IMG/VR virus record: IMGVR_UViG_3300037358_000205
Source of the DNA: an uncultured virus (IMG/VR IMGVR_UViG_3300037358_000205)
Taxonomy: Duplodnaviria > Heunggongvirae > Uroviricota > Caudoviricetes
Reading direction: 5' to 3' (one strand)
DNA: 64,000 nucleotides
Shown here: piece by piece, positions 1,307-63,924 of the stretch
Layout: each line of letters opens with the position of its first letter
Position numbering within the stretch: the stretch's first letter is position 1
Notes under the pieces: generated by a model
Databases searched by the model: none
Seen by the model: only the letters and a program-made list of their open reading frames with translations
Told to the model about the DNA's origin: nothing
Program-made: the position numbers and the translations under genes

Positions 1307-2161
1307 ATGGGCCTGAAAGATTACGTGTCAATCCCCCTCAATTTCGAGCGGAGGCCAGAGGTTCGGATGCTGGCGCGGCGGCTCGGAAACGGGGAGGGTA
1401 ATGACCCCCATCCGCACTTCATGTCGGGGGCCTCTCAATGCGTTGCGCTGGCACTCGGAATCTGGATGGAGTTCGCCATCGCCGGGACGCGGTGGCGACC
1501 CTTGACGATGCCGATGGTGGACGGGCACGCCGGGGCCGCATCGGAGCATCCTTGGGACCGCGAAGAGGTTACTTTTTTGATCGAGGGGGCGGCGGGCTGG
1601 GATGGCAAGCCGGGGGCGCTGATTCAATCGGCGCTGGACGCCGGGATACTGGCCGTCGAGTACCACGGCGATGTCGCGGGGTTGACGATTTGTGGCGTGT
1701 TCGGGTTTGGGGATTTGAATGCCCACTTGCTCCCCGGGTACGAGTCGATGCAGCAAAAGGGAGCGAAGGCATCGCAAGAGTCGCGGCGGCGGAAAGACGA
1801 CGTGGCGGGAGCGAAGCAGCAACGCCGGATACTGGAGGCCCGCGAGGAGCGGCTCCCGATCTTCGAGAGCCAGGCGGCGACCACGGCAGAGGTTGACGCG
1901 GCCCTCGCCCTTATCTCCGGGGTGGACCGCGCTTGCGGCCACGCCGCGAGGCTCGCCGGGGAGTTCACGCAAATGCTCGTCGAGGCGGCGGTGGAGGTTA
2001 CGCGGAATTTCCAAACCCGAGAAATCGAGGAGGCGATGAACTGCCTTATTAGAGGGCGCGACAATCCGGCGATTGTGAAGCGCACGGATTTCGTGCTCAC
2101 CCATTTTGCGGAGTACGTGACCTTTCGGCGTGCCCCGAGTTGTGACAAAATAGCAACATGA
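1307..2161 (+). CDS. Phage protein, possibly a replication initiator (wHTH-type N-terminus)
   Basis: N-terminal RPEVRMLARRLG...LGIW pattern resembles phage replisome organisers; function inferred. Confidence 0.4.
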   Translation: MGLKDYVSIPLNFERRPEVRMLARRLGNGEGNDPHPHFMSGASQCVALALGIWMEFAIAGTRWRPLTMPMVDGHAGAASEHPWDREEVTFLIEGAAGWDGKPGALIQSALDAGILAVEYHGDVAGLTICGVFGFGDLNAHLLPGYESMQQKGAKASQESRRRKDDVAGAKQQRRILEAREERLPIFESQAATTAEVDAALALISGVDRACGHAARLAGEFTQMLVEAAVEVTRNFQTREIEEAMNCLIRGRDNPAIVKRTDFVLTHFAEYVTFRRAPSCDKIAT

Positions 2162-2167
2162 CCAAAA

Positions 2168-2183
2168 TGTTCCACGTGGATCA
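2168..2183. promoter_or_regulatory. parS: Canonical-type chromosomal parS site
   Basis: TGTTCCACGTGGATCA, 1 mismatch from TGTTCCACGTGGAACA; intergenic. Confidence 0.55.
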
Positions 2184-2202
2184 TCGTTAGACCTGCAACA
2201 TT

Positions 2203-2658
2203 ATGAAACGCTGTGAATATAAAATCCCCGGTGGTGCCCGCTGTAGCGACCGCAAGGGCCATCGAGGTCCCCATCGCGTGAAGGTGGCGTTTGAGACGAT
2301 TTGCAACTTCCACCTTCGAAACGTGGCGCGGATGAAGGATGGATGGAGCGTCATTATCGAGGTCCAAGGCCAAGAGAATGTCGGGCCGTGCTTCCTGCCG
2401 GATGAGGCATTGGAGCGGCTTGCCGAATTTCGGGTTTGGTGCATTCGGGTGGGAGGGTGTGCCATCTGGAAGGGTGGAGAGAGCGACCTGAGAACGCTTA
2501 CCGCCGCATTGAAGCGCGCGGCTCCCCTGCGCAACATTGACTGGCGGGCGACGTGCCGGGAGACGGTGACGGCGATGCGTGCCGCCTACGCAAGCGGGAG
2601 GGGCATTAACCTTTCCCGCGAACAACTGCACTCGATCCTTTGCGGGTACGCTTTATGA
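2203..2658 (+). CDS. Hypothetical phage protein
   Basis: 151-aa ORF whose stop overlaps the next start (ATGA). Confidence 0.6.
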   Translation: MKRCEYKIPGGARCSDRKGHRGPHRVKVAFETICNFHLRNVARMKDGWSVIIEVQGQENVGPCFLPDEALERLAEFRVWCIRVGGCAIWKGGESDLRTLTAALKRAAPLRNIDWRATCRETVTAMRAAYASGRGINLSREQLHSILCGYAL

Positions 2659-3737: not shown

Positions 3738-3984
3738 ACGCGAACACGATCCTCTCTCGCGGCGTCATTTACCGACTTATCTTCGCGCCGGGTATTCCGC
3801 CCCGCAAAGAATGGCTCACTCGCAGCGAGGCTCTCTTTGCGCCCCTTGAATGGGATTGGAGCAAGCTCTTTGCCGAAGCCTATATCTTCCCCCGCTACGA
3901 GGACGCTGTAGAGATGGTTTCCTCCCATGAGGGCGATGGCGGTCAAATCCGGATGGTCCCGATGGTTCACAAGGAGGAAGCTCC

Positions 3985-4269
3985 ATGATTCCGCAACGCT
4001 TCCCCGAGGCAAATACCGTGATGGTGCGCCCTCAAGGGTGGACGGAAGAGGAATGCTCGGACATTCACGCCTTCGTGGGGGACGGTTGGGTGATTACGGC
4101 GTGGCGTCCGACTCCAGCGGAGTTGATGAAGCTGAATCTTGGCGAGCCGGTTTACCTGATGTTGAAGGGGGGGACGATGCAACCCGCGTGTGTCACCGCG
4201 GATTCGCCTTTCGTGCCTGATCCAGTTCAAGACCGCCAGCTTGATGAACTTCAAGACAGCCACCTTTAG
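3985..4269 (+). CDS. Hypothetical phage protein
   Basis: 94-aa ORF with AAGGAGG RBS upstream. Confidence 0.65.
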   Translation: MIPQRFPEANTVMVRPQGWTEEECSDIHAFVGDGWVITAWRPTPAELMKLNLGEPVYLMLKGGTMQPACVTADSPFVPDPVQDRQLDELQDSHL

Positions 4270-4483: not shown

Positions 4484-5856
4484 GTGACGAATTCTTTGTT
4501 CCCGAAGCTCCAATGGAGGATGAACCCGAGAGCAAGCCCAAGCGGGGCAGGAAGAGACGCGAGGAGCTTGTCACGCCGCTTCCCCCGCCCGCGCCAGTAG
4601 AGGAGCCCGCGCCCGCGCCCGTGGCGCCTGCACCCGTGCCGAAAGCCGTAGTGAGGGGAATCTTCACCGAATATGACGCGCCGGACGGTTCGCGCTGGCG
4701 CTGTGACAACCCGGACAGGATGCGGGAGGATTTTGGGATTTACGGGGATGACCTGACGCGCTGGCACGCGGATGTGGCGACGGTGCAGGAAGTGTGGACG
4801 ATCCTTCGGCGCGTGTACCGTCTCGCGCCTCTCATGGGGTCTTCGCATGAGGAATTGCGGGAGTGGACCATCGAAGAGATTGCGAAGGAATCGGCTGTGC
4901 CGGTGAAGCGGATCGAGACGTTGATCGAGGAAACGAAAGTGTTTTGGGACAGGAAGAACACAGAGCGGAGCTTCGTCGATCGGGCGGCGTCGTCGGGAGA
5001 TTTGAAGCGGATGGACGATGACCAGATTGAAAAGTTACTTTTGCTTCATGGCTTCGTGACGGTTGGCGGATCTGCGGCCGTACCGACTTATGAGCGGCGT
5101 TACCTCGCGTCCCGAATCGTGGACTTTCAGCACTTGCTCGAAGACGAGCAGGGCGCGCAGTTGGCGCGAAACGCGTTGATGACGGAGTTGATTCTTCGCA
5201 AATACGACCGCGAAATTTTGGAGAAGATGGCTGACACGCGCAACCTCTCCTCGACTGAGTTTCAAAAGCTGGTGGACGCCCGCGCGGAGCAACAGAAGGC
5301 GTATGAGGAGACGTTGAAGCACCTGGGCGCGACCCACGCGCAGAACCCCGGCTTTCGCGCGAAGATGGCGTTTGGGGATTCGGTGGGGCACATGGTCAAG
5401 GCGTATCAGGAGTTCTACCGGGACGGGAGCCAGGTGTTGGTGGACGGGATGTTCACGGAGGCGGAAGTGAAGCTGTTGATGACGCCCACGACATTGAGGC
5501 CGGCGCAATACCGGCCTGATTTGCCGCTCATGGTCGAGGAGTGGAGGCGAAACTTTTGGGATGCCAGCTATGACGCAAGGGGCGCGGCACTCCCTCGCGC
5601 GGCCCACCGGGTATTGCTGGCGGCGTTCCAGAGCGCGTCGGTGGATTTTGTCGGCGGCAAGATCGTCGATATGGAAGGGGAATTGGGCGAGGATGAGGCG
5701 GATGCGGCGTTGGAGCAGGCTGAGGTAGCGGAACCGGAGCGTGCGGCCCATGATGAATTTGGGACGGACATCGAGGGCGATGCGTCCATGCCGATGCCGG
5801 AGGGAGGCGCAAGGATGCCGCGAGGAGGAGGAGATTTGGGGGTGTTCGGCGTATGA
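4480..5856 (+). CDS. Phage protein (candidate terminase small subunit-like, HTH + coiled coil)
   Basis: 458-aa ORF with WTIEEIAKESAVPVKRIE HTH-like segment; last backbone gene before terL once the cargo gene is removed; function inferred. Confidence 0.45.
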   Translation: MSDEFFVPEAPMEDEPESKPKRGRKRREELVTPLPPPAPVEEPAPAPVAPAPVPKAVVRGIFTEYDAPDGSRWRCDNPDRMREDFGIYGDDLTRWHADVATVQEVWTILRRVYRLAPLMGSSHEELREWTIEEIAKESAVPVKRIETLIEETKVFWDRKNTERSFVDRAASSGDLKRMDDDQIEKLLLLHGFVTVGGSAAVPTYERRYLASRIVDFQHLLEDEQGAQLARNALMTELILRKYDREILEKMADTRNLSSTEFQKLVDARAEQQKAYEETLKHLGATHAQNPGFRAKMAFGDSVGHMVKAYQEFYRDGSQVLVDGMFTEAEVKLLMTPTTLRPAQYRPDLPLMVEEWRRNFWDASYDARGAALPRAAHRVLLAAFQSASVDFVGGKIVDMEGELGEDEADAALEQAEVAEPERAAHDEFGTDIEGDASMPMPEGGARMPRGGGDLGVFGV

Positions 5857-6072
5857 TGGTGCTTACCTTCAAAGCCTCACGCCAGTTTGCACCCTCGCCA
5901 TACTGGCGAATCTCCGTCCGTCCCGGCCCGATCCGCCGCGTCACAACGCCCACGCAACAAGGGCGCGATCCCATGGTTCACGAGGGATCGGAATTTTCCT
6001 CCCGAACGCTCAATTTCAGATTTGATGCTTTGCCCAAGCCTCCATAAAGTCGGCAATCAAGAGGATTTTTTC

Positions 6073-9792: not shown

Positions 9793-11580
9793 TTGCTTTC
9801 GCTGGCGATTCGTGGCATTGCGAGCCTCGTGATCGAGATTGAGCAGAAGTGGATGGAGCAATTCTTCTTCGATCCCGTCATGGCCGCATACGTGCTGATG
9901 GGTGCGAAGCTGGACGTGTTCCAGCAGGCTCGTTTGCGGTTTTACTGGTTCTGCCCCGAAGTGATCGACAGCAGCGGCGTCGGCACGGGCAAGACGGAAG
10001 TTCAATTCGTGTACCTCATGCTCCGGTGCATGTTGATGCCGGGACACCTGGCCGCGATCTACTTCCCCAACTTCCAGACCGGAAAAGATACGTTTTGGGT
10101 GAAGTTCGCGGATTACGAGGAGCGAAGCCCGGTCTTTGCCGCGCAATTCCGCAAGGGTCAGAAGGCGGATGAGGAGAAAGCCAATCAACGAAATCCCGGC
10201 GCGTGGATTCGGACCTTCAAGAACGCCTCGAAACTGTTCATGCCAGCCCCCGACTTCAAGGGCGACTCGAAGAATCAGGCATCGCGCGACTTCAACACGG
10301 TTGTCATTGACGAGTACCTTCGCGCAGCGGATCAGGGCGAGGGCATTGACAAGCAGATCGTGGATCGTGCCCGTCGCAAGTGCTTCAACAAGCTGCACCC
10401 GGTTTGGTGCAACCACGTCAAATTCCTCGGACACGCGGAGAGTCCGCAGCACAAGGAATATCAGCGGCTCAAGGCGTTCAAGGGAGCGATACGGGACGGG
10501 AGTTCGCGGCACGCGCTGATTACCTTCTCCTACCGCGATTGGAGCGAGGAGCTTGCGAGGATGTACCGGGAAGACAACCTGATTGCCTCGCAGAAGCGGA
10601 AGATGACGCGGGACGCCTTTCGTCGGCAATATCTCGGCATCTGGACGATTGACGGCACGAACTACTACCACCCGCATACCATTGCGCTGTGCCGGAGGCC
10701 GGGGATTATTCCGCAGACGCGGCGGCGGCATCCGAATGAAATCTTCGTGCTGGGGCAGGACGTTGCGGAGCCGGGAAGCAAGCACGCGGATTGGTGCGCG
10801 TGGTTCGTCAATCGCATCGTCGAAGTGTCCAGGCGGGACCAAGCGACGATGGAGATGGAGGGGATGTATTACCATGTGGCGGCGGTGTTCGCGCACCAAT
10901 TGCGCAACCGGGACGCGGGGCAGATTGCGGCGCTGACGCACTGGCTCAACATCAAGTACGGGTTTTCCGTGATCGTGCTGGACCCCGGAGGCGGTGGCCG
11001 CTGGGTGCTGCCTGAGCTGCGCAAGACCACGCAGGTTATCAACGGCATCGAGCGGCATGTAACCGGCCTGACGACGCGGGATGATCCGATGGGGGCGATT
11101 CTGAAACGCCCGATTGTGAGCTTCTACAAGCGGGGCGGCGACATGGATACCTTCATCGAAGAGGATTGGCGCCGGGGGGATGAGGGCTTTATCGAGCGGA
11201 GCCACCAGCTTTACCTTGATAGCTGGCAGGGGCAGCATCATTTGTGGCCGGCGCGGGAACAAGACAGGGCGCGCGAGCAACTCCTCCAGTTCTCGCGGGA
11301 GCAACGGGTGGCGCAACACTGGATGGATGTCGCGGCGAAGCAAGTCATGGCGATCCGGCTGCTACGGCGTCCCGATGGCTCGAAGCTCACGAGCAAGCGC
11401 GGGTACGGCTTGTTCGAGGCGAAAGTGAAAAAGGATTTGGGGTACTCGAGCCTTTACGCACACATGGGGGTGCAACTCTGGATGCACGACCGGGAGATGG
11501 CCGGGATGGCGGAAGGCGGGGGCTGTTTCGGGGTGACGCCGGACGAGTCGATGATCGACACCGGCGCGATGATGTCGTAG
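9793..11580 (+). CDS. terL: Terminase large subunit
   Basis: GVGTGKT Walker A, VVIDEY Walker B, FRRQYLGIW, LGQDVA RNase H-like nuclease motif; start codon uncertain. Confidence 0.85.
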   Translation: MLSLAIRGIASLVIEIEQKWMEQFFFDPVMAAYVLMGAKLDVFQQARLRFYWFCPEVIDSSGVGTGKTEVQFVYLMLRCMLMPGHLAAIYFPNFQTGKDTFWVKFADYEERSPVFAAQFRKGQKADEEKANQRNPGAWIRTFKNASKLFMPAPDFKGDSKNQASRDFNTVVIDEYLRAADQGEGIDKQIVDRARRKCFNKLHPVWCNHVKFLGHAESPQHKEYQRLKAFKGAIRDGSSRHALITFSYRDWSEELARMYREDNLIASQKRKMTRDAFRRQYLGIWTIDGTNYYHPHTIALCRRPGIIPQTRRRHPNEIFVLGQDVAEPGSKHADWCAWFVNRIVEVSRRDQATMEMEGMYYHVAAVFAHQLRNRDAGQIAALTHWLNIKYGFSVIVLDPGGGGRWVLPELRKTTQVINGIERHVTGLTTRDDPMGAILKRPIVSFYKRGGDMDTFIEEDWRRGDEGFIERSHQLYLDSWQGQHHLWPAREQDRAREQLLQFSREQRVAQHWMDVAAKQVMAIRLLRRPDGSKLTSKRGYGLFEAKVKKDLGYSSLYAHMGVQLWMHDREMAGMAEGGGCFGVTPDESMIDTGAMMS

Positions 11581-11647: not shown

Positions 11648-13183
11648 ATGGCATCCGCACGTCCTCCCCGTAAACCGCGCACAGTCGCGGAGGAGAGCGT
11701 GGACTACGGCTCGGACGCCACGGGGCAGAGTATGGCGATGGTGTCGGAATTGATGACGTCGGCCCGCTCCATGATGCGCTCGCGGGACTTGTTCCAGACC
11801 GATCAGCAGGGAACCTACGGCGACAACGCGATTACGGACATCCGCATTTTCACCAATGCGTGGAAGATGGTGGACCTCAAGACCGTGTTCAAGCGGTGTC
11901 GCGAGCTCGCGTGGAGGAACCAATTCGTTTCGTGGGCGTGCTATTTCAAAAAGTTACTTTTTTTCAACGGTTTTCGGGTAATGGGGGTGGATGAGAAGGT
12001 GGCGGCGAAATACCTGCCGCAATTCCGGCGCATCGCGCGGGACGTGTTTGACGAGTACCTGACAAACGACAACGCGATTGCCGTGTGGATGCAGGCGAAC
12101 ACGAAGGACACAGAGAAGGGGGAGACGCCGGAATTGCCTCCCGTGATGGTAATGAACTGCGAGAATTGCCGGTATGATGACACGTTTGGAATCCCAAGCC
12201 TGACGATTCAATTCTCCGGGGCGCGGAAACTTTCGGCGGACAGGCGTAACCAGCTTGGGCCGCGTTATGCGGACGCGCTTGAAAAGGGCGGGGAAATCAC
12301 GCTGGACGAAGAAGAGGGCGAGTATTACCGCGTGCTCTCGTCGGACAAGCTGGGCAACGGGCTGGGGATGCCGCGGTTGCGGGCGGTGTTCGATTTGCTC
12401 TCCACCCTGGACCTCGCGAACAAGGGGGACTGGAATGCGTTCTGGACCATGAAAGACGTGATCCGCCAGATCAAAAAAGGGCACGCGATTACCACGGGAA
12501 ACCTTGCGGGGATGCCAATGCACTTCCTTAAAAAAGAGGAGATGGCGAAGATTTTGGCGGGCTTGAGCGGGAAGGCGGGCGCCTACGATGTCGTGTCGAA
12601 CTTCGACGTGGAGATTGCGTATCCGACCCTGGAGATTGAACCAAAGTTTCTCGATCCGAAGAAACTTGGCGGCGTGATGGAGCAACTCCTTCAATGGCTT
12701 GGGCCGGTGGGCTTGTTGTTCAAGACGACGCAAGGGCGGGCGCTCGATGACTTGATACCCGTACTCAACGCGGAAATGACGTACCACCGGGCCTTCGTGA
12801 AGGATCTGTTGGAGGAGATTTTCAATGATCCCGCTTTTATCTCGCCGGGTGGCGATGAGGACGTGCCTGGGAAAGCGGATGGCGTTGCGTCTCCGAGAAT
12901 CACGGTTGAGTTCAATGAATTAACGCTGGTGACGTTCAAGAACCTCCTGGCCTACGCGACCATGATTCTGACGAACGGCATTGCGAGCCCACAAACGACG
13001 CGCCGGATCATGAGTCTGAACGAGGACGAGGAGAACGCGCTCATGAAGAAGGCGGCGGCGAACAAGGCACTTTACACGCCAGTTTTCGAGGCGAAACAGG
13101 GCCTTCTTCAACAGCCCGCCGACCCGGATGCGCCAGAGCCTTCCGACAATGGCGGCGGCAAGCCGGTAGTGAACCAGAACTAA
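11648..13183 (+). CDS. Portal protein
   Basis: Directly after terL, about 510 aa, GLGMPRL motif and C-terminal GIASPQT..R pattern typical of portals. Confidence 0.7.
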   Translation: MASARPPRKPRTVAEESVDYGSDATGQSMAMVSELMTSARSMMRSRDLFQTDQQGTYGDNAITDIRIFTNAWKMVDLKTVFKRCRELAWRNQFVSWACYFKKLLFFNGFRVMGVDEKVAAKYLPQFRRIARDVFDEYLTNDNAIAVWMQANTKDTEKGETPELPPVMVMNCENCRYDDTFGIPSLTIQFSGARKLSADRRNQLGPRYADALEKGGEITLDEEEGEYYRVLSSDKLGNGLGMPRLRAVFDLLSTLDLANKGDWNAFWTMKDVIRQIKKGHAITTGNLAGMPMHFLKKEEMAKILAGLSGKAGAYDVVSNFDVEIAYPTLEIEPKFLDPKKLGGVMEQLLQWLGPVGLLFKTTQGRALDDLIPVLNAEMTYHRAFVKDLLEEIFNDPAFISPGGDEDVPGKADGVASPRITVEFNELTLVTFKNLLAYATMILTNGIASPQTTRRIMSLNEDEENALMKKAAANKALYTPVFEAKQGLLQQPADPDAPEPSDNGGGKPVVNQN

Positions 13184-16054: not shown

Positions 16055-16462
16055 ATGACCATGCTCGCTGTTATTCATTGGGAAGAATGGGTGCCGGGGG
16101 GCCTGTGGGCAGCCGGCATCGTGCTGGGAGGATTCTTCCTGTTCCTCCTCGATAAGCGGTATGCGAAGCTGAAAGACCTCGAACGGGTGGGTATTGCCGC
16201 GATGGCCGAAGCGAAACGCGTGGAAACTGCGGCTATAACCGAAGCGAAACGCGTGGAAACTGCGGCGATAGCCGAAGCAAAACGCGTGGAAGAGGCGAGT
16301 AAGGATTGGTTCAAGGAGAGCGCCAAGAACATTGGCTTGCTCCAGGCGAGCGAGGCCAAGAGGGACAGGGACAGCGACGTAGTGAAGGATAAGCTGGCGA
16401 CCATCGACGGGAAGCTCTCCATCCTGATTCCGTTGATGGAAAAGCGCATTCTCGAAAAGTAA
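16055..16462 (+). CDS. Membrane protein with coiled coil (holin- or i-spanin-like)
   Basis: One N-terminal TM segment and about 3 AEAKRVETAAI repeats (33-bp tandem unit at about 16205-16293). Confidence 0.55.
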   Translation: MTMLAVIHWEEWVPGGLWAAGIVLGGFFLFLLDKRYAKLKDLERVGIAAMAEAKRVETAAITEAKRVETAAIAEAKRVEEASKDWFKESAKNIGLLQASEAKRDRDSDVVKDKLATIDGKLSILIPLMEKRILEK

Positions 16463-16469
16463 CTTTTCT

Positions 16470-20344: not shown

Positions 20345-20380
20345 TGGACAGAAAAGTAACTTTGTGAAGAGGACAGCCCC

Positions 20381-23540: not shown

Positions 23541-23593
23541 CCAAGTAGCAACCAAGCAACCAATCAGCAGAACTTAGAAAAGTAACTTTTCTT

Positions 23594-24892: not shown

Positions 24893-26077
24893 ATGAAATG
24901 CTCTCCTGCTCCCATTGCGGACTCTGATTTGCAAACGGCCATTGATCCCGAGATCGGTGCCGAAAAGCAACTTTTCGTCAGCTACAACCCGTGGAACTAT
25001 CTCGGTGACATCGCGCAAATCTTCGGCGGCACTCCTCAAGTGACCACGGCGACCTGCGCGGGCGAAGTTACCGAGGCTGGCAATGCCGCTGTGACAGTCA
25101 CCGGAGCCGGCATCGCCGGAAGCCCGGTAGCCGTCCCTGTGGCCGTCGCTGTTGACGACACGCCCACCCTGTACGCTGCGAAGATTGCGGCGGCGATCAA
25201 CCTCAACGCCGCAATCGCGGCGCTATATGTGGCTTCGTCCAGCGCGGCGAAAGTGATCCTGACGGCGATAGCACCCGCTGCCAATGACGCCACCCTCAAT
25301 ATCGCCATCGCGACGGGGACGGCGACGGGGATTACTGCGGCTCCCGATAGCGCGGATACGACGGCTGGCGCGATTGGTACGGGCACTTACACGCCCAACC
25401 CGATTGCGGTTCCCGCCGCAGCCGGAGCCGGGTTCGACCTCCAGCTCATCAGCACCAATGGCGCTCTCTCGGCCTGCGAGATTGTGGCGCTCCTCAGTGT
25501 CGTCTTCGCGGACTCCACTGCTGGGACGGCGACCGCGACGTTCGCGATCCCGGCGCGTGCCGTCAACCAGGCATCCTCCGTCCCGGCCGGGACGGCGGTT
25601 GACATCGCAGGCGTTGGCGACGGCGCTGGCAAGCAAATCGCCTCGATCACCGGGCTGGTAAGCATCGTGGGCGGCTATGTCGGAAACCAGTTCAAGCTGG
25701 TAGCATTGCCGGACGCGGATTCCTACAGCCTCGTTGGCTTCGTGACCGAAGCCGGCCTCAAGCTGCCGGTGTCCGGTAGCGTGGCGATTGCGGACGGGTT
25801 TGACGGCTCCGCGGCCATCAAGCGCGGTCGCTCGGAACCCGGCAGCCTCACGGCGAAAAGCCACTACATCGACTACATGAGCGGGCTCGCCCGCATCAAT
25901 GGGTTCTTTGTCACTGGCCGAATCGACGTGCTCAAGGATGACCGCGTGCTCACCGAGCGCACGATCATTGGCCGGTGGAAGGCCATGTGCAACCCGACGC
26001 GCGGCGATGGCAACGACCCGGTGATGGGCGATGCCGAAGGATCGTTTCAGGAGTTCGCGATCTTCGTCGCTCCGTAA
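24893..26077 (+). CDS. Structural protein (tail tube candidate) with inserted beta-rich domain
   Basis: Highly biased codons, beta-rich C-half; shares an approximately 110-aa domain with 22686-23540. Confidence 0.5.
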   Translation: MKCSPAPIADSDLQTAIDPEIGAEKQLFVSYNPWNYLGDIAQIFGGTPQVTTATCAGEVTEAGNAAVTVTGAGIAGSPVAVPVAVAVDDTPTLYAAKIAAAINLNAAIAALYVASSSAAKVILTAIAPAANDATLNIAIATGTATGITAAPDSADTTAGAIGTGTYTPNPIAVPAAAGAGFDLQLISTNGALSACEIVALLSVVFADSTAGTATATFAIPARAVNQASSVPAGTAVDIAGVGDGAGKQIASITGLVSIVGGYVGNQFKLVALPDADSYSLVGFVTEAGLKLPVSGSVAIADGFDGSAAIKRGRSEPGSLTAKSHYIDYMSGLARINGFFVTGRIDVLKDDRVLTERTIIGRWKAMCNPTRGDGNDPVMGDAEGSFQEFAIFVAP

Positions 26078-26794: not shown

Positions 26795-27727
26795 ATGAAC
26801 TACGGCCAGATACCCTTCTCTCAGTGGGAGGCGGATATTGCGGTGTACCTCTCGGACGCGAGCGGCAACACCGTAGGCGGCGCGTCTCCGATTTGGCTTG
26901 GGGGTACGCCTTCGAAAAGTAACTTTTCGGATGGGTTCAAGGAGGAGGAGGCGAATATCTCCGGCCAACCGGGGGTGAACATCCAACACCTCGAGGAAAC
27001 GCATGGCATCGAGTTGGAGAATGTGTGGATGGCGCGGGCGGATCAGCCGGTGGGCGGTGTTGTTCCGGTGGAAGTGCTGGGCCTTGACCGCAATCAATTC
27101 TATTCCATCGCGATTATCTGGACGGATGAGGAGACGGGCGTGTGGGTCAAGCGGGTTTACTACGGGGTAAAGCTACCTGAGTTGTCCATGAGCACGGAGA
27201 ATCAGGTGATGGCGCAGAAAATGAAGTTCGAGGGGGGGACGATGTTACAGACGGCGGGGACACCCCAGCAGGCGCCGGATGAAGGAGTAGCCCTCTACGG
27301 CCGAGTCCAGTACGTGAATACTCTTGGACAGGCGACGGACATTTACACCTACGACTTCGGGACACGGGTTTTCTCTCCCGTTGGGGGTGGCGTGCCCGGT
27401 AATTCGGTAGGATGGGACGGGACTGAAAACGAGATAACCGTGGCGGGGATGGTTGCCTTGATCGTCACGGAGGCGGGCCAGGTGCAGGTGGAGCAACTGA
27501 GTGCGGGTGGCACTTATAACAACCCGCCCCGGCTGGACTTCTACGCTGGAGCTTCGCGGATCGCGTCGGTGAGCGCGGCGGGAGTGCTTGCCGTGACATC
27601 CTTTCGGGAGACGGACGTGGACCCCGGCTTGCCTTTGGGATTCGCGCTTGTGGACAGCGAGGGGCACTGGCTTGCAACCATTGACGCAACGGGGGTGTAC
27701 GCGCCCTCGATTACTGACGACCTATGA
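26795..27727 (+). CDS. Structural protein
   Basis: 310-aa ORF; C-half paralogous to 27969-28823. Confidence 0.6.
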   Translation: MNYGQIPFSQWEADIAVYLSDASGNTVGGASPIWLGGTPSKSNFSDGFKEEEANISGQPGVNIQHLEETHGIELENVWMARADQPVGGVVPVEVLGLDRNQFYSIAIIWTDEETGVWVKRVYYGVKLPELSMSTENQVMAQKMKFEGGTMLQTAGTPQQAPDEGVALYGRVQYVNTLGQATDIYTYDFGTRVFSPVGGGVPGNSVGWDGTENEITVAGMVALIVTEAGQVQVEQLSAGGTYNNPPRLDFYAGASRIASVSAAGVLAVTSFRETDVDPGLPLGFALVDSEGHWLATIDATGVYAPSITDDL

Positions 27728-29846: not shown

Positions 29847-29869
29847 TCGAACGCCAAAAAGTAACTTTT

Positions 29870-32227: not shown

Positions 32228-32254
32228 TCAAAAAGTAACTTTTCGCCTCAGTCG

Positions 32255-37612: not shown

Positions 37613-37635
37613 TCGACTTCGAAAAGTAACTTTTT

Positions 37636-49200: not shown

Positions 49201-49233
49201 ATGGGGCCGACTCGTGAACCTTCGTTTGATAGC

Positions 49234-50079: not shown

Positions 50080-50098
50080 TCTAATTTCGGTCCCTCCG

Positions 50099-50839: not shown

Positions 50840-50989
50840 CGCTCACGTGTACCACGTTCCAGGGTTTCGTCAATTCGCCCCCCGGGCGGAGATTGAAGTG
50901 GGAGCTTCTTTGGTGAGGATGACGGGAGGCGTGGCCTGGGTTGAAAGTTGCTTTTCCCGGCGTTTGGCGGAATAGACGGTGGCGGGATG

Positions 50990-51166
50990 TCATAACAGGA
51001 CGGGAAGGGTGGGCTGTTGAGAAAGTAACTTTTCGCGCCGGGTTGCGGCGGATTTACGGCCGGCGCGCTGATTGAGGAGCTTGCGGGCCTCCGCCGTGCT
51101 GATGCGGCGCTCGATGGCGAGGGCGCTGACGCGCTTCTCGATGCGATCTCTCATGGCGTCATTCAT
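50990..51166 (-). CDS. Small basic hypothetical protein
   Basis: MNDAMRDR... coupled to the upstream gene. Confidence 0.5.
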   Translation of the reverse strand: MNDAMRDRIEKRVSALAIERRISTAEARKLLNQRAGRKSAATRREKLLSQQPTLPVLL

Positions 51167-52724: not shown

Positions 52725-52872
52725 CTGCGTGTGTTGTGGTGCTGTGTGTTGTGGTTGAGGTCGTCCATGTAGAAATGAAAAGACCAGTGGTGAAGATCGA
52801 GAGCGCGGGGAGTGGAGCGGCGGTATTCGTCGAACCAGACCGGGAGGATGCTAAAGAGGCGCATCATAAAAG

Positions 52873-53256
52873 TTACTTTGCGCGGAGTAGGACTTCGGGG
52901 GGCTGGCCCATGTAGATACCTCGCTGCACCTTGACGCCTTCGGCGCGGATTGCCTTCTCCCGCTTTTCGAGTTTGCCCCACATGATTTTCTGCATCTTCT
53001 TGTGTTCGCCAGCGCGCCACTCCTCAAGCTGTTCGGGGGTTTCGACTTTCTCGCCGGGTTCGTTGGGCGGCTCCTGATCGAGCGCAATCTCCGAACAGAC
53101 GGCGATGCAATCCGCGATAACGGCGGTGGCGACAACGGCGAAGATATAGCGGTCGCCGCCCGATACATCGGCAATGTCGAGATGACTGACGGTGATATTG
53201 TGGTGTTTGAGATGAAGCACGTAGGCTCCGAAGTCGCTGAATTTCAGGTATGTCAT
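52873..53256 (-). CDS. Hypothetical protein
   Basis: 127-aa ORF in the minus-strand operon. Confidence 0.55.
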   Translation of the reverse strand: MTYLKFSDFGAYVLHLKHHNITVSHLDIADVSGGDRYIFAVVATAVIADCIAVCSEIALDQEPPNEPGEKVETPEQLEEWRAGEHKKMQKIMWGKLEKREKAIRAEGVKVQRGIYMGQPPEVLLRAK

Positions 53257-53277: not shown

Positions 53278-55008
53278 TTATGCGGCGGCGAGTTGCTTCA
53301 CGCGTGAAGCATCGGCGTAGTCCTCGGGGAAGAACTGGCTGATGTCGGCTTCCTGAGTCCAGGCGGCGAGGGTGACGGCCTCTGCCAGATCGGGCGGGAC
53401 GGCGTTGCCGATTTGTTTGACTTGCTCGCTCTTGTTGCCCGCGAACCAATAGTCAGGCGGGAAGCCTTGGCAGGCGGCGAGTTCCTTGGGGGTGAGCATC
53501 CGCAAGAGGATGTCGATGCAGAAGGTTTCGCCGTCGATTTCGAAGCAGGGCAGGCCGTCGATTGTCTTGCTGCATGTTACCAGCGTCACGAGGCCGAAGC
53601 GGTCCTTGGTGGTGATCGTGTCCATCGGCTCGTCGAGGCTCACGGCGCTTGCGGTGCCGTAGTATTTCACGAGGAAGGCTTGAACCAGCGTGTGCCGGGC
53701 TTTGGTGCTGACGGTCGTGAGCGGCTCGTCGAGGCTCTTGGTGCCGTTCTTGAGGTTGCCATCGGCGCGGGCGGAAGCCTTGCCCTGGTTGTCGATGGAG
53801 ACGATGAACTCCGCGAGAGCCTTTCCGTTGGTGCAGGTGACATTCTTGAGCGGCTCGTCGAGGGTCTGAACCCGGCGACCATTGGCCCGCGTCCCCTCGG
53901 AGCCGTTGCCGTGGTTCACGTCCACGATGACGGGCTGGGCGAGGTAGAGCGTCTTGCTGCAAGTGATGGTGGGGCTGGGCTCGTCGAGGCCCTGTGCGCT
54001 GCCGTCGAGTTGGTTGGGAGCGGTGCCGCGCATCTTGACGATGAACGGCTCCACGAGGGCCTCGCCGCGCATCGTGGTGGTGATGGGGGATAGCGGCTCG
54101 TCGAGGCTCTTGACAGCCTTCCCGCCCCGTTGCTGGGGTACGATGAAGGGAACGTCCCCGAAGAGTTCCACGCCCTTTACGATGCGGCGGAAGGTGTTGG
54201 GACTGAGCGGGGGCAAACCGGCTTCCTTGCGGCGGTAAATTGAGATGCCCTTGTCGGTGAGGTCGATGCATTGACGGGCCACGCGCCAGGGAAGCATGGG
54301 GCGCTCTGTGCCGGAGAAAAGTTCCATCGCGGTGGCTTCCTTTGCGAAGCGCGGATTGGGCCAAACGATCTTGCGACCGCTGCCGCGGCGGATGCACTGG
54401 ATGATGAGACGGCGCCGGGTGGTCGGGCTGCCGTAGTCCGCGCAGCAAAGGACGCGGGCTTCGACGAGATGGGTGACTTCGATGAGGGCGATCCATGCCC
54501 GGTAAAGCTCGCCCTCGCGCTTCGGATCGGGAACCCACTTCATTTTGCCCTTTACCCGTTTGCGGATGCACGGCCCCCATTTGCGAAACTCGGGCACGTT
54601 CTCGATGAGCATGACATCAGGCATCGTGTCGTCCGCCCAACGGGTGACGCAATGGGCCGTGGCGCGGCTCTGCTCGTTGATGGGAGCGCCAGCGGCGGCG
54701 GTGGAATGCCCGGTGCATTCCGGGGAGGCGTAAAGAATCTTGCACTCGCCCCGCCTGAAGTGGTCGCGGGGATTGACGCTATCGAGGGAGGTTAGAAGGT
54801 GCCTCTCCTCGGGGTGATTGTGGCTGTGGGTGCGGATGGCGAGCGGGGCATGATTGATGGCGAGAATCTCCGTCAGAATTTCGAGCCGCTTGAAGGCTTG
54901 CTTGGCCCCGGTTGTCGTGCCGCCAGCCCCGCAGAAGAGGTCCGCGCCCTTGATGGGCTTGGACGTTTGCCAGCGGAATTTCCGCTTGGTCAAAAAGTTA
55001 CTTTTCAT
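53278..55008 (-). CDS. Phage C5-cytosine DNA methyltransferase
   Basis: DLFCGAGG, SPEC, ENV, TRRRL, RMLTPKEL..QGFP, QIGNAVPP; five LDEP repeats. Confidence 0.92.
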   Translation of the reverse strand: MKSNFLTKRKFRWQTSKPIKGADLFCGAGGTTTGAKQAFKRLEILTEILAINHAPLAIRTHSHNHPEERHLLTSLDSVNPRDHFRRGECKILYASPECTGHSTAAAGAPINEQSRATAHCVTRWADDTMPDVMLIENVPEFRKWGPCIRKRVKGKMKWVPDPKREGELYRAWIALIEVTHLVEARVLCCADYGSPTTRRRLIIQCIRRGSGRKIVWPNPRFAKEATAMELFSGTERPMLPWRVARQCIDLTDKGISIYRRKEAGLPPLSPNTFRRIVKGVELFGDVPFIVPQQRGGKAVKSLDEPLSPITTTMRGEALVEPFIVKMRGTAPNQLDGSAQGLDEPSPTITCSKTLYLAQPVIVDVNHGNGSEGTRANGRRVQTLDEPLKNVTCTNGKALAEFIVSIDNQGKASARADGNLKNGTKSLDEPLTTVSTKARHTLVQAFLVKYYGTASAVSLDEPMDTITTKDRFGLVTLVTCSKTIDGLPCFEIDGETFCIDILLRMLTPKELAACQGFPPDYWFAGNKSEQVKQIGNAVPPDLAEAVTLAAWTQEADISQFFPEDYADASRVKQLAAA

Positions 55009-58977: not shown

Positions 58978-61900
58978 TCATTCCTTGGGCATCTGGATGT
59001 TGTTGAGCTTTTCGAGGAGGCGGCGAATCTCGGCGGATTCGGGAGTCTCGTCGGGGTCCACGAATGTCGGCTTCTGCTTCTTCTTCCGCTTGGGCGACAC
59101 GAGGGCCTCCAACGCTGCCTTGATGTCCTGCGGAGTGACCATTGGATTGAATGGGCTGTTGGCGAACCGCTTGGGGCCGATGCAGGAGGCGATGGGCGGG
59201 TGAAACTCGCGGAATTGCTGTTCCGCAATGTTGAGCTTTTGCTTGAGGTAGGGCCACTCGGCTTCGATCTGGTGCTCGTCAATCGTCTCCCTTGCCGGGT
59301 CGAAGTCCCTGACGGCATCAGAAAGTAACTTTGCGAGGTTTACCTCTTCGATCCGCTCAGTGAACAAGCGGCCGTCGAGAGCCAGGTGGGACGAATCGCC
59401 CTTCTCGGTGTAGAGGGCGAAGAGGCGTTCATCGACCGTGTTCTCCGTGACGCAACCGAAGATATAAACATCCTCCTTGCTGGTGAGCCGGTGGACGCGA
59501 TCGGTGACTTGATCGTTGATGTCGAACGCCCATTCGATGGAGGGAAGGAAGAGGTAATTGCATTGCTCGAAGCTGTTGCCCTCGCCCATCGCTTTCTCGC
59601 CTGCTACCATCACGGAGTAATGGAATTGCTTGAACCGGCCCGCCATGTCACTCCGCTTGGTGGCGGATACGGTGCCGTCGCAGAGGCAAGCCTTTACCCC
59701 GGCTTCGCGGAGACGCTGAAACATGGTGGCGTTGAAGTGCTGGAAGGGGCTGGCAATGAGGATTTGCTTGCCCCGGCTCAGGGGGTCGATGAGCGCCCCA
59801 AGGATGGCGGCGGATTTCGTGGTGAAATCGGTCCATGAAGCGGCCTTGGTGTCGTTGTGGTAGTCGCGCAAGTTCTGCGAGTCCGGACAGAGCGCGGCCT
59901 GACGCAGAAGATTCAACTGGACGGCGACAACCGCGGATTTCTTCAACTCCTCCCCGGCGCGGGTGAACTCGGGCGGATTATTCAAATGGAAGGCATAGAC
60001 GGCCTGCTGTGCGCTCCCGGCCTTCACGCGGAGGGGCTTGAATATCTTCGGCGCGATGTCCTCGCCCACGTCCTCTTTGCGCCGGCGGATGACGATGGGG
60101 CCAAGAAGTTTCCAGAGGCGGTGAATGTTGCAAATCTCGGCGCTGCGTTTCTCGAAGCGGCGGCTCTTGCCGGTGTTGGCGTAATAGACGGCCTCACGGG
60201 TGAGGTTGCGCTCCTTGAGCTGGTGCTCGTTGGCGAATTGCTCCTTGGCTTCGGAGCTATTGGCGTAGGGGAAGCGTGCGGTGGCGTCTTCGGTGCAGCC
60301 ATCGACCCATTTCGCGAGCCAGAAGATGTCCTCCAGCCGGTTCTTGATGGGGGTCGCGGAGAGGACAAGGCGGGTCTTGGGATTAAGGCCGCGAACTCCG
60401 GTGCTGGTGTAGCTGTCGGTGCTCTTGAGCCGCACGCCTTCATCGACTTCCACGCAATCGAACAGATCCGCAACGAGCCGGGAGAGGGTGGGAGTGAAGA
60501 TGCAGCGGATGCCGTGCTCACAAATCTCCTTGCCGATGCCCGCGCTGTATTCCTCATGCCAGCCTTCGGTTTGCCAGCGGCGCCGGGTAATGGTTTCGCT
60601 GATCTCGAGGGTCTGGACGCCGTTGCGCTTGACCAATTCAGGCTCCCATTCATCGGCCCCATTCATGCCAAGGGCGGTATAGCTGGTGATCCAGAATTGC
60701 GGGTCGCCGTCGCCGGGGGCGGGGTTGGTGGTATGGGTTTCCGTTACCATGCCCGTCAGGCGAAGAATGCGGAGCACTTCCTCGCGGCCGGGAATGCGAA
60801 GCCATCCACCGGGCTTGCCGGATTGGAAGCTGGGGTCCATGGCGCGGACGCATTGCCAGAGGGTGACAGGATACTCATTGACGGTTTGCGCATGGGTCGC
60901 GAGGTCGGTGCGATGGCCCCACACTTCCTCCCCGGCCCTGCCTGTGATGCCGCCGATCTTGTGATGATCCGGGTTGACGCCGATGGAATAGACGTGTTCC
61001 CAAGTTTCCTCGCAGGGCTTGTCGAGGAAGGCTTGGATGCGGGGGACGGCGGCACCTACGTTGTGGGTGCCGATTCTAGCGTTGACGACGATGGTGGAGC
61101 GGGTGGCGTTGAGGCGGTCGAGCAATGCGGATTGCAGGATTTCATCGTCATAGAAATCGTCCTGGCTCATGAGGTCGCGGATCTCCACGCCGAAGAATTT
61201 AAGGGCCACGTCCTTGGTCTGCTGGTGCAGGGTATCGGGGGCGACGAGGAGGACGCGCTTGGCTCCCATGAGGAAGGGGCGGATCATTTCGGCCCACGTT
61301 TTGCCAAGGCCAGCGGCCCACGCGAGGATTGCGCCATCCATGAGGGTTGAGCGGGCGAGGTCGTCTTTCTGGAAGTTCTTGATGTGGACGTCCTTCTCCT
61401 TGAGTCCCCAGCGGAGGGCGAGCTCGTCGATCCGGGCGAGCGCGGCGCGGTATTCCTCGTGCCGGATGGTGGCCACGTCCTGAACCTCGGGGATCTCGAA
61501 GCTCTCGATGAGGGCGCTGAGGTTGTTGGCGGGCGAGGTCGGGCGGATTTCGGTTCCATCGGGCCGGAGTTCCAATTCCATCTCGGGGAATTGCATGAAG
61601 CGGTGTTTGGTGCCGCTCTCGTCGGTGACGGTAATCACGAGGTCCTGGCCCGTGACGAGAATATCCTCTTCGTCGCCGTCGATGTTGATTTGCGTCTTGT
61701 GACGCCCGATCTTCACCGTCTCGGAAGCGATCTTGTAGGACTTCCCGGCCTCGAATGAGGTGTGGCCGGTGAAGGAATTGCCCAAGTTTCTGCGGCACTT
61801 GAGCGTCTCGTTTTCATCCACGTAGCCGATGCGCTGGACTTCCGAGAGGGGATAGAACGGGGCGCGGCCGGCGTGATAGAGGCGGATGGATTGTTCGACT

Positions 61901-63024
61901 AGCGGCGGGAGCTTGGGATCGACAAGCCACACGTCGCTATTGACGGCCGCTTGCAACGCCTCGCGGGTATTGCGCTGGACAACGAGGGCCATCGGAGTTT
62001 GGCCCTCGAGCAGATGGAGGATCGAAACCAGCTTTTGCGGTACGCGACCGCTGAGGGTTTGGAACGGCGTGAGATGCCGGTGGATAACCTGGTGCTCGTC
62101 GATCCAGATATTGAACTGGCGCTTCTTCTCGCCGTGGCGGGCTTCGTATTCGTCGCGGGCGGTGTCCCAATCGCGCCATGTGGTCATCGAGCCATCGGTC
62201 TTAAACTTCCGCTCGATGCCGCCGCGGATCATGTAGCGGTTGGTTTTGATGTCCTTGATCGCGGCTTCGGCGCCGGAGGGAGTGTTGGTCCTGGCGGTGC
62301 GGTGTTCAATCTTCCCATCCCGGCGATGGTCGCGGGCGAAGTAGAGGACGGCGGTATCTATCGAATTGCAGTTCTGGAAGATGCTGCCGGGGATCGAGAG
62401 CCAGAGCCAGATGTGCTGGCGGGCGGCGAGGTCGCCGCCGTAGCCCTCGGGATTGCCGAAGTAGGCGCGGGCGATTGTCTCCGAGAGGATGATGTACCCC
62501 TCGCCCTTGGTGGTCATGAACTCCAAGGCCATGAGGAAGGTTGCCACGCCGGAGTTGATTTTGCCCTTCTTGGTCGCCACCGCGAAGCTCTCGCGGATCT
62601 CCCGCGACTTGCTCTTGCCGAGAAATTCGAGGCGCTTCGCATCCCAATTGATCGAGAAGGGAGGGTTGAGGACGAAGGTATCGGCCTGCCACGCGATTTC
62701 CGCGAGGATGGGGGCGAAGAGGGTGATGTCGGCGGGGAAGGCGTTCCAGTTCCCCTTGGCATTGGCGGGCTTGCGGGCAACGCCCTTGTCGATGTCGCAC
62801 CCCATGAAGTCGTCGCCTCCGCTCCCCAGGAGGAGATTTCCGGTCCCCATCTGCAAATCGACGGCGCGATAAACAGAGGGAAGGATGGAGGCGAATGCGG
62901 TGGCGTAGGCGAGCGGCGTGATGAATTGCTGCTGGCCTTTCCTGGCGGTGTCGCCGCTGTCGAGGGTTTCCTGTAGGGAATCCCAATGGATGCCGTTTCC
63001 GGCTTCGGTTTTGGTCTTAGGCAT
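58978..63024 (-). CDS. DarB-like methyltransferase + SNF2 helicase fusion
   Basis: QQFITP, DLQMGTG, NPPF (N6-MTase); AAGLGKT, VDEG, LSATPIKN, GEGNSF, DRVHRL (SNF2). Confidence 0.75.
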   Translation of the reverse strand: MPKTKTEAGNGIHWDSLQETLDSGDTARKGQQQFITPLAYATAFASILPSVYRAVDLQMGTGNLLLGSGGDDFMGCDIDKGVARKPANAKGNWNAFPADITLFAPILAEIAWQADTFVLNPPFSINWDAKRLEFLGKSKSREIRESFAVATKKGKINSGVATFLMALEFMTTKGEGYIILSETIARAYFGNPEGYGGDLAARQHIWLWLSIPGSIFQNCNSIDTAVLYFARDHRRDGKIEHRTARTNTPSGAEAAIKDIKTNRYMIRGGIERKFKTDGSMTTWRDWDTARDEYEARHGEKKRQFNIWIDEHQVIHRHLTPFQTLSGRVPQKLVSILHLLEGQTPMALVVQRNTREALQAAVNSDVWLVDPKLPPLVEQSIRLYHAGRAPFYPLSEVQRIGYVDENETLKCRRNLGNSFTGHTSFEAGKSYKIASETVKIGRHKTQINIDGDEEDILVTGQDLVITVTDESGTKHRFMQFPEMELELRPDGTEIRPTSPANNLSALIESFEIPEVQDVATIRHEEYRAALARIDELALRWGLKEKDVHIKNFQKDDLARSTLMDGAILAWAAGLGKTWAEMIRPFLMGAKRVLLVAPDTLHQQTKDVALKFFGVEIRDLMSQDDFYDDEILQSALLDRLNATRSTIVVNARIGTHNVGAAVPRIQAFLDKPCEETWEHVYSIGVNPDHHKIGGITGRAGEEVWGHRTDLATHAQTVNEYPVTLWQCVRAMDPSFQSGKPGGWLRIPGREEVLRILRLTGMVTETHTTNPAPGDGDPQFWITSYTALGMNGADEWEPELVKRNGVQTLEISETITRRRWQTEGWHEEYSAGIGKEICEHGIRCIFTPTLSRLVADLFDCVEVDEGVRLKSTDSYTSTGVRGLNPKTRLVLSATPIKNRLEDIFWLAKWVDGCTEDATARFPYANSSEAKEQFANEHQLKERNLTREAVYYANTGKSRRFEKRSAEICNIHRLWKLLGPIVIRRRKEDVGEDIAPKIFKPLRVKAGSAQQAVYAFHLNNPPEFTRAGEELKKSAVVAVQLNLLRQAALCPDSQNLRDYHNDTKAASWTDFTTKSAAILGALIDPLSRGKQILIASPFQHFNATMFQRLREAGVKACLCDGTVSATKRSDMAGRFKQFHYSVMVAGEKAMGEGNSFEQCNYLFLPSIEWAFDINDQVTDRVHRLTSKEDVYIFGCVTENTVDERLFALYTEKGDSSHLALDGRLFTERIEEVNLAKLLSDAVRDFDPARETIDEHQIEAEWPYLKQKLNIAEQQFREFHPPIASCIGPKRFANSPFNPMVTPQDIKAALEALVSPKRKKKQKPTFVDPDETPESAEIRRLLEKLNNIQMPKE

Positions 63025-63306
63025 GGTGGCTTTGTGTGTGTGTGGTTTTTGCTTCACGCGTGAAGCAGTTCAGGTGACTCGATTGGCGGTTCGAGGGTGA
63101 TGGGCGCGTACTCCGGGGCTGAGTCCATCGCGACGAGGGCGACGGTGCAGACGGGGCACGTTTCAGTGTTGTGGTCTTCGTGGATAAAGAAGGCTGGGCA
63201 CATTGGGCTTGCTGAGGGGTTGAGGTTTAACTAAAGAGGGAGTCGGGTCAAAAGTGTCATTGTGACAATATGTCAACACGTTTGACACAATGATTTTGTC
63301 GTGTGG

Positions 63307-63340
63307 CTGCCGCGCTGGTTTGGGGGAGCCAGCGCGGCAG
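63307..63340 (-). terminator. Stem-loop after the 63355-63924 gene
   Basis: CTGCCGCGCTGG..CCAGCGCGGCAG. Confidence 0.55.
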
Positions 63341-63354
63341 GGCCGCGCGGAAAG

Positions 63355-63924
63355 TTACTTTTTGGGCTGGTCGAGGTCCCGATTCCTGCCGCTGAGAAGT
63401 TCGGCGGCAGTCATGGTCTTGAGGATGTTGCGGGAAGTGAACTCAACGGGGGTGTTGGTTTCATAGCCGTGGATGTGAGCGCTAACCATGTTGGCTTGCT
63501 CGATGACGCCCTGCCACGTTTCGCCCTGGCGGGTGACTTGGACCCAAAAGCGTTCGCCTCCCGCCTTCCGTTCGCCTTCTCCCTTCCAGCCAACGCCAAG
63601 CTGCACGAAGTCGCCCTCGTGGATTTCCTCCAACTCGGCCGCGCCGGGGATGAAGAAGGAGTCCGGATGCTGCCGGTTTCGATCCACGGCATCCATGAGG
63701 GGCATTTGCTCGGCTGCGGTCGGGAGTTTCTCGGGATGCGGGAAGGCCCAAAACTGCGTGCCGTCGAATTGAACATCGTGCCCCACCGGGAGGCGGGCTG
63801 CGGCTTCCACGGTTTCGAAGATGGAATCAAGCGTAGCCTGGAGACGGCAGGCTTCGTCGAGGTCGAGCGTGGACCAATCCTTCTGAATGGCCGTGGCCGC
63901 GTTGTGAGCGAGGAAGGCGGGCAC
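63355..63924 (-). CDS. DUF2314-like domain protein
   Basis: GDFVQL...GERFWVQV....WQGVI. Confidence 0.5.
   Translation of the reverse strand: MPAFLAHNAATAIQKDWSTLDLDEACRLQATLDSIFETVEAAARLPVGHDVQFDGTQFWAFPHPEKLPTAAEQMPLMDAVDRNRQHPDSFFIPGAAELEEIHEGDFVQLGVGWKGEGERKAGGERFWVQVTRQGETWQGVIEQANMVSAHIHGYETNTPVEFTSRNILKTMTAAELLSGRNRDLDQPKK

Follow-up and report, generated by a model that had tools for sequence, protein, structure and literature searches.

The 64,000-nucleotide (nt) stretch analysed here in full, the window (IMG/VR record IMGVR_UViG_3300037358_000205), belongs to an uncultured tailed phage that is almost wholly unannotated, and along its 64 kb of 59% GC sequence there recurs an AT-rich 13-bp palindrome, AAAAGTWACTTTT, which is the subject of this report. 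Matches in Pfam, PHROGs and NCBIfam include a tape-measure protein, a tail fibre, an HD-domain protein, a Cro/CI-like helix-turn-helix (HTH) protein and a ParB-like protein, as well as a small serine recombinase, methylases and two helicase/restriction-type cargo blocks. A 595-aa protein encoded at 9793-11580, which carries Walker A- and B-like motifs and is 62% identical to its orthologue in a related prophage described below, is probably the large terminase, and is unrecognised by the same three collections. Strong plus-strand intrinsic terminators at 21496-21523 and 32254-32285 mark off transcription units within the structural region. Leaders are poor in G and rich in A and C, intergenic gaps are often only about 5-25 nt long, and a Shine-Dalgarno (SD) core of at least 4 nt precedes only 16 of 50 genes in the window and 24 of 107 in the related genome, which suggests SD-independent initiation in this phage-host pair. 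At gathering thresholds Rfam finds only a tRNA in the window, and the palindrome matches no RNA family.

The palindrome occurs nine times without mismatch, at exactly the positions listed in the original prediction, against 0.00 expected from 100 dinucleotide shuffles. The same prediction put the number of copies at about 16, which is the number found with at most one mismatch. With up to two mismatches there are 20 sites against 0.46 expected (largest shuffle, 3), and three sites have exactly three mismatches, giving 23 in total against 4.75 expected. As only background-level additions are made at three mismatches, the family is sharply bounded and has no degenerate tail; its real members number about 17-19 in 64 kb, at spacings of about 1-8 kb. 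The dyad reaches into the flanks to span some 17 bp, in the form C-N-AAAAGTWACTTTT-N-G, with C at position -2 in 13 of 19 boundary sites and G at position +2 in 6 of the 10 boundary sites without an abutting ATG (the latter counted manually from the printed sequences). Mismatches are confined to the three central or the outermost positions and the inner arms are nearly invariant, with no compensatory pair changes among the variants of the window and the related genome. Such invariance of both arms without compensation is as expected if a protein reads the sequence. The motif contains neither GGAG nor AGGA and thus no SD core.

Table 1. Copies of the 13-bp palindrome in the window, and genes of two candidate binding proteins.
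Feature	Coordinates	Strand	Context
Weak copy AGAGGTTACTTTT, 2 mismatches, membership uncertain	1564..1576	-	Within gene 1307-2161
Perfect site	5030..5042	-	Within 458-aa gene, codons 184-188 (EKLLL); sense-strand central T; uses TTA
AAAAGATACGTTT, 2 mismatches, one in inner arm; probably chance	10083..10095		Within terminase-like gene
Perfect site	11949..11961	-	Within gene 11627/11699-13183 (KKLLF); absent from aligned G001 codons
Perfect junction site	16455..16467	+	TAA 16460-16462 is stop of 16055-16462; ATG 16470 lies 2 nt past motif
One-mismatch junction site	20352..20364	+	7 nt past stop of 20078-20344; 16 nt ahead of ATG 20381
Perfect site	23578..23590	+	3 nt ahead of ATG of capsid-like 408-aa gene
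One-mismatch site AAAAGCAACTTTT	24963..24975	+	Within gene 24893-26077; identical in L009
Perfect site	26915..26927	+	Within gene 26795-27727 (KSNF); identical in L009; absent from aligned G001 codons
Perfect site	29857..29869	+	Abuts ATG 29870; TAA in frame with upstream TAG stop
Perfect site	32231..32243	+	3 nt past stop of 32039-32227; 10 nt ahead of terminator hairpin 32254-32285
One-mismatch site	36120..36132	+	Within tape-measure gene
Perfect site	37622..37634	+	Between tape-measure and 721-aa genes; 1 nt ahead of ATG 37636
One-mismatch site	38583..38595	+	Within 721-aa gene (EVTF)
Two-mismatch site	50943..50955		Just 3' of last backbone gene, ahead of cargo block
One-mismatch site	51021..51033	+	In final codons of gene 50990-51352 (-)
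One-mismatch junction site	52868..52880	-	TAA is stop of 52873-53256 (-); abutting ATG opens 48-codon open reading frame
Perfect site	54993..55005	-	Directly past ATG (55008-55006) of C5-methylase gene; 43 nt downstream of ParB-like gene
Two-mismatch site	59321..59333		Within SNF2/methylase gene
One-mismatch site	63350..63362	-	TAA is stop of 63355-63924 (-); inverted repeat follows
Candidate binder, Cro/CI-type HTH protein, 97 aa	4190..4483	+	phrog_925, E = 3e-5; HTH_26 below threshold
Candidate binder, non-canonical ParB-like protein, 519 aa	55048..56607	-	phrog_1033, E = 1.4e-26

A homologue search with the 408-aa capsid-like protein gave 34 relatives, and the sole locus from one genome-collection scan was G001, a 5.6-Mb metagenome-assembled genome of the Verrucomicrobiae. 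Beyond G001 no further relative was found among the 401 Verrucomicrobiota genomes searched, nor did scans of IMG/VR with the capsid-like protein, a terminase-like alignment and a ParB-like alignment find one. Comparison of open reading frames (ORFs) places a syntenic prophage of ~112 kb at about 23.6-136 kb of G001 contig C2, with a tyrosine integrase at one end, the orthologue of the Cro/CI-type HTH gene at the other and host-like genes beyond; the G001 relative is accordingly temperate. Judged from this prophage, ~25 kb of the phage, containing the replication module, lies outside the window, in which Pfam and PHROGs scans found no integrase. The HD-domain and HTH genes, which flank opposite ends of the G001 prophage, are adjacent in the window (3737-4190), so the two are either circularly permuted or integrated at different sites.

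The distribution of the motif in G001 follows the prophage, which makes up about 2% of the genome yet holds 14 of the 17 sites with at most one mismatch, namely all eight perfect and six of the nine one-mismatch sites, inside C2:33.8-125.3 kb; with the pattern reversed as a control, the whole genome yields 14. One or more perfect matches occur in 77 of the 401 Verrucomicrobiota genomes, and G001 stands at the top with eight against one for its control. The next-highest genomes, with six and five perfect matches, are near their own controls and have them scattered over megabases, and no motif cluster was found in the 400 other genomes. The motif is therefore the phage's own and not a host signal, the alternative that the original prediction had named. 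Its observation that the two defence cargo blocks are spared is likewise borne out, since 5887-9366 and 39938-50839 are free of sites with two or fewer mismatches (P = 0.017 for 16 sites). In G001 the long site-free gaps also coincide with cargo, including a homologous defence island that encodes a PLD-SNF2 helicase, an Eco57I-type methylase and an SMC-like ATPase and that occupies a different place in each phage genome (window 39938-49200; G001 C2:103758-113795). A pattern scan of IMG/VR with CNAAAAGTAACTTTT yielded single matches only, among the matches listed (80 of 116 loci).

Conservation in related phages was found in G001 and in three metagenome contigs that keep sites, L008 (identical capsid), L009 (94%) and L010. 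The alignment to L009 spans 15,748 bases, of which 1,800 (11.4%) differ, compared with one of the 78 motif bases (P = 9e-4), and the two intragenic sites that could be compared show no changes at all; purifying selection thus acts on the sites. Despite about 50% protein identity, the window phage and G001 have five or six junction positions in common, including those ahead of the capsid-like gene, ahead of a 360-aa gene and after the tape-measure gene. Site 23578 keeps its position in G001 (where it abuts the ATG), L009 and L010, the G001 orthologue's counterpart of site 20352 abuts the ATG (C2:117955), and the counterpart of 37622 lies in the same gap in opposite orientation (C2:77005). This comparison between diverged lineages covers two, the window phage and the G001 prophage.

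Intragenic sites behave differently. They occur in all three frames, as the original prediction had it (EKLLL at 5030, KSNF at 26915 and EVTF at 38583), and in both orientations, and no intragenic position coincides between the window phage and G001 (0 of 8 sites in the window, 0 of 3 in G001); site 5030, for example, has no counterpart at the aligned G001 position. They use rare codons, with TTA accounting for 1.7% of Leu, AGT for 6.5% of Ser and GTA for 9% of Val. That intragenic sites are kept at 94% identity but have moved at ~50% protein identity indicates selection on the DNA and not on the encoded residues. The grid of motifs is thus real, phage-specific and selected.

Gene boundaries are contacted by 8 of 16 window sites against 7% expected (P = 6e-6) and by 9 of 14 G001 sites against 19% expected (P = 2e-4). 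The TAA of the motif serves as the upstream gene's stop at three window sites (16455 and, on the minus strand, 52868 and 63350) and at no fewer than five (>=5) in G001, and at five further sites, among them 20352, it lies in frame a few codons past the real stop. Both the stop-supplying sites of the window and the sites 0-3 nt ahead of the ATGs at 16470, 23594, 29870 and 37636 had been described in the original prediction and were recovered. Two sites lie directly past an ATG (window 54993 and L009:6133), and no gene start follows 32231, in a gap between a stop and a terminator, or G001 C2:49967, at a convergent gene end. Eleven sites fall in the structural region at 16-39 kb. The ATG abutting site 52868 opens an ORF absent from the gene calls (52724-52867, minus strand), which lies upstream of the genes for a PurA-like 88-aa protein and the serine recombinase.

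In our judgement there is about an even chance that the motif constitutes the operator grid of a single dimeric DNA-binding protein encoded by the phage, with stop-start junctions as the preferred locations. A duplex DNA target and a symmetric dimer are favoured by the extended dyad, the conserved arms, the intragenic sites that move and the sites without a following gene start. The sharply bounded excess, the phage specificity, the purifying selection, the site-free defence blocks and the temperate G001 relative, together with the HTH and ParB-like proteins that both phages encode, also speak for an operator grid. When present, most likely in the prophage state, the regulator would occupy the grid and hold the backbone genes off, either as a roadblock to RNA polymerase in the manner of stoperators or with the sites acting as loading or anchoring points of a ParB/KorB-type silencer. 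An AT-rich 13-mer would be costly inside the genes of a 59% GC genome and would be tolerated, or even helpful, around a start codon; at a junction its TAA could double as a stop codon and its AU-rich RNA copy as a leader. With gaps this short and leaders that are AU/AC-rich and mostly lack an SD, the junction would be the cheapest place for a site, which would account for half of the sites being there. Of what the original prediction proposed, a dimeric DNA-binding protein and a constraint acting on the DNA fit the extended perfect dyad and the rare-codon intragenic sites, and a packaging signal found no support. Binding by a protein, the identity of that protein and the consequences of binding are what we infer beyond the observed excess, phage specificity, conservation, symmetry, placement and selection.

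Several observations weigh against this operator reading. ATG anchoring, a sense-strand central A and an in-frame TAA all favour a role in translation, and a symmetric DNA site on its own predicts none of the three. An ATG lies 0-4 nt downstream of 6 of 16 window and 5 of 13 G001 sites, where about 7% is expected, and in six of these 11 cases (out of 29) it directly abuts the motif. The TAA shares the reading frame of the upstream gene in 13 of the 18 boundary sites (P = 9e-4). In 17 of the 18, A is the central base of the sense strand (P = 0.001, given a leader A:T of 0.59), as it is in 9 of 10 once the stop-supplying sites are set aside (P = 0.04). Only the central base can carry orientation, and intragenic sites are mixed in this respect. 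A small hairpin (stem AAAAG/CUUUU plus flanks, 5-7 bp, loop UAA) is predicted at five of six folded sites. Three short contigs with capsid genes 56-62% identical (L011-L013) have no site ahead of the capsid gene, the leader there being instead A/C-rich and ending CTT-ATG, so the wider clade does not carry the motif throughout. Between two phages whose motif is identical, the HTH candidate shows poor conservation of its recognition helix, and no operator cluster lies beside any regulator gene in the window, unlike the ParB-like gene of G001. Finally, the gene boundaries behind these counts come from our own codon-usage caller and are not a validated annotation.

The translational features would suit an RNA-level junction element, either a small hairpin ahead of the AUG that serves as a translational operator or a cassette in which UAA stop and AUG couple re-initiation. 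The frequency of a close downstream ATG, the two sites placed directly past an ATG, a loop that reads UAA and not UUA at all but one of the boundary sites, the TAA that is the upstream stop or in frame with it and the predicted hairpins all speak for such an element, as does the scarcity of SD cores, which makes other initiation signals plausible; the Cluster K start-associated sequences, as far as the available text of PMC3203893 describes them, are the nearest parallel and would provide a precedent. The hairpins, however, are weak and no better than those of shuffled sequences (z -1.8 to +1.4), the arms are invariant with zero compensatory pairs and inner-stem variants that are mostly disruptive, the perfect rare-codon intragenic sites with UUA centres (5030 and 11949) are given no role, and some sites stand ahead of terminators or at convergent gene ends. 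We consider an RNA-level element of this kind unlikely, and the tie to translation signals, tighter than the original prediction stated, keeps it alive. An element defined by RNA structure only was rejected, the hairpin being no stabler than shuffled sequence and the arms being conserved by sequence and not by covariation.

DNA and RNA roles could also be combined in a gene-by-gene gate, a reading that we regard as distinctly unlikely. The regulator would sit on the junction DNA, and blocked polymerases would release transcripts with neither the stop of the upstream gene nor the start of the next one. In the lytic state these 13 nt would act as RNA and provide a UAA stop and an SD-less AU-rich start coupling the translation of neighbouring genes.

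The orientation of boundary sites, which tracks gene direction, and their position directly upstream of ATGs would also be expected of a promoter or promoter component recognised by a phage RNA polymerase or sigma factor, with transcripts starting at or just before the ATG and thus leaderless or nearly so. The central-A form of the motif includes TAACTT, which by our own reading is -10-like at three key positions, and much of the proteome is unannotated, leaving room for a divergent polymerase. Against this, neither the window nor the scanned G001 prophage proteins gave a match to an RNA polymerase or sigma family, a strong terminator follows site 32231 after 10 nt, other sites lie at convergent gene ends or antisense within genes, the gene that follows the 21496-21523 terminator is without a motif, and with a spacing of 0-3 nt a host-type -10 element would start transcription past the ATG. 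The terminator, the convergent and antisense sites, the motif-less unit and the spacing together indicate that the motif is probably not a promoter, and we rate this explanation as very unlikely. A sigma-70 scan of 15-35 kb gave five sites against 6.9 expected, none at a motif. Parts of the region appear in two metatranscriptome runs and one unlabelled run, as short, low-depth contigs that carry no transcript-end or strand information.

The dispersal of the motif at about 1-8 kb intervals, the ParB-like gene and the failure to find an integrase in the window would be compatible with a DNA signal that has no regulatory function, such as dispersed centromere-like partition sites of the N15 kind, a genome compaction or packaging signal, a nicking site or a site of recombination between modules. 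N15 has four dispersed centromere sites, according to the available part of PMC7205306. No ParA-type ATPase was found in the window, however, and the G001 relative is integrated and has kept its sites nonetheless. Nick sites should share one physical strand, but here orientation flips with gene direction, and every variant leaves the anchoring to stops and starts unexplained. We know of no precedent for seventeen or more centromere sites, or for multiple packaging sites, which counts further against such signals and leaves them only a slim chance. Serine recombinase crossover sites were rejected, those of that family being longer and centred on a 2-bp overlap.

If the operator reading holds, the binder would be expected among the phage's own proteins, of which the original prediction named three. 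The G001 orthologue of the HTH protein matches HTH_26 at E = 1.7e-5 and is 45% identical to the window protein, and a 17-bp odd dyad is the classical type of site for Cro/CI-type proteins. Beside the HTH gene, in 3600-4600, there is neither a motif copy nor any other strong dyad, unlike lambda-type CI/Cro systems, in which operators cluster at divergent promoters. The ParB-like protein has a GHRR arginine patch, and its residues 135-229 match the ParB of PDB 6t1f at E = 0.006; it is 40% identical to its G001 orthologue, with the HTH region better conserved than the rest, and is non-canonical in a region where a second ParB of G001 is canonical. Ahead of the ParB-like gene of G001 lie two degenerate tandem copies of the motif (L004, C2:60164-60190), with a perfect copy 190 bp upstream, and these could form an autoregulatory region. 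The ParB-like protein is a possible binder. For the third protein, of 458 aa, Pfam, PHROGs and NCBIfam gave no DNA-binding signature, and ESM Atlas, with a best score of 0.85, assigned it to no family. The gene of the binder may also lie in the ~25 kb that the window does not include.

A candidate alternative target of the ParB-like protein is a second, parS-like palindrome. The window holds seven copies of a TGCTTCACGCGTGAAGCA-like palindrome against 0.33 expected, all at or near gene ends (9376, 16722, 21475, 28849, 53296, 55031 and 63052), with the form (TG)CTTCACGCGTGAAG(CA). A distance of 4 nt separates one of them from the stop codon of the ParB-like gene, and an ATG or GTG frequently precedes the palindrome, which then reads as a four-codon mini-ORF. 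The G001 prophage has eight copies of a GTTTCCGCGGAAAC-like site, tgGTTTCCGCGGAAACca, in its replication module (L003, C2:40616-47869, ~40.6-47.9 kb), many of them framed by AAAAGTG...CACTTTT arms similar to half-sites of the main motif set 16 bp apart; this tgGTTTCCGCGGAAACca cluster could be a centromere, an origin array or a set of bidirectional terminators. We take the second palindromes of both phages to resemble parS or Noc-binding sites, and the window form to be parS with two extra central bases.

Several known systems share parts of this pattern. In phiC31, whose conserved inverted repeats are palindromic and intergenic, and in P1, with its C1 operators, one repressor acts at many highly conserved sites scattered over the genome. 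The stoperators of Cluster A mycobacteriophages (L5 gp71, TipsytheTRex), as described in the accessible part of PMC9283540, comprise more than twenty 13-bp sites, many of them in short intergenic gaps and with an orientation that tracks transcription, and are bound by the immunity repressor, which stops elongation. The motif resembles them in size, number, dispersal and phage specificity and, with about half of its sites at gene boundaries, partly in junction placement. The same portion of PMC9283540 describes stoperators as asymmetric and bound by a monomer with two DNA-binding domains, whereas the present motif forms a perfect dyad, is AT-rich although the genome is GC-rich, and often supplies a stop and abuts an ATG. 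A gp71-type repressor was not found in the Pfam, PHROGs and NCBIfam scans, and no homology search was aimed at gp71.

The start-associated sequences of Cluster K phages (SAS/ESAS), in the sections of PMC3203893 that are available, are 13-bp repeats 3-7 bp upstream of starts, mostly ATG, in one orientation; the upstream stop sometimes lies inside the repeat, the repeats are absent from the host genome and their function is given as unknown. Closeness to ATGs (11 of 29 sites), embedded stops and absence from the host are common to both. The same sections describe SAS as non-palindromic, carrying the SD core AGGAG and confined to the non-structural half of the genome, unlike the present motif, which is palindromic, has no SD core and extends across structural genes and into coding sequences.

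As a system with both a ParB-family protein and scattered operators, the IncP plasmid RK2 is a further point of comparison; it carries 12 operators of the OB type. According to the part of PMC11790492 at hand, the OB operators of KorB are palindromes dispersed over a ~60-kb replicon, with a core that is an odd palindrome around a central base, and KorB is a ParB-family CTPase clamp that silences promoters adjacent to it or more than 1 kb away, alongside a second operator type, OA. This phage likewise has an odd-centred dispersed palindrome, a ParB-like gene and a second palindrome family. A KorA-like clamp lock and an IncC/ParA partner were not recognised in the window, which omits ~25 kb of the phage.

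At the left end of the window, a tRNA-Val(GAC) gene (1219-1290, minus strand) adjoins the N-terminal part of an Avs4-like defence gene (1-843, minus strand), which continues past the window's end. Of 201 Verrucomicrobiota genomes searched, two contain relatives of the gene. The region may be a prophage-host junction or phage cargo.

To our knowledge, experimental characterisation of genome-wide operator grids is limited to a small number of phages and plasmids, among them those with L5-type stoperators and RK2 with its KorB system. The motif described here combines features of two known patterns, the dispersed operator grid and the start-associated repeat, in a perfect dyad that supplies stops and abuts starts, and it does so in an almost wholly unannotated lineage of Verrucomicrobia phages from cold soils. 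As a signature it separates the native backbone from recently acquired defence cargo, and it can serve to test how one set of bases is shared by DNA operators and signals for SD-independent translation. For such a phage, a single 17-bp duplex is a handle for finding the master regulator.

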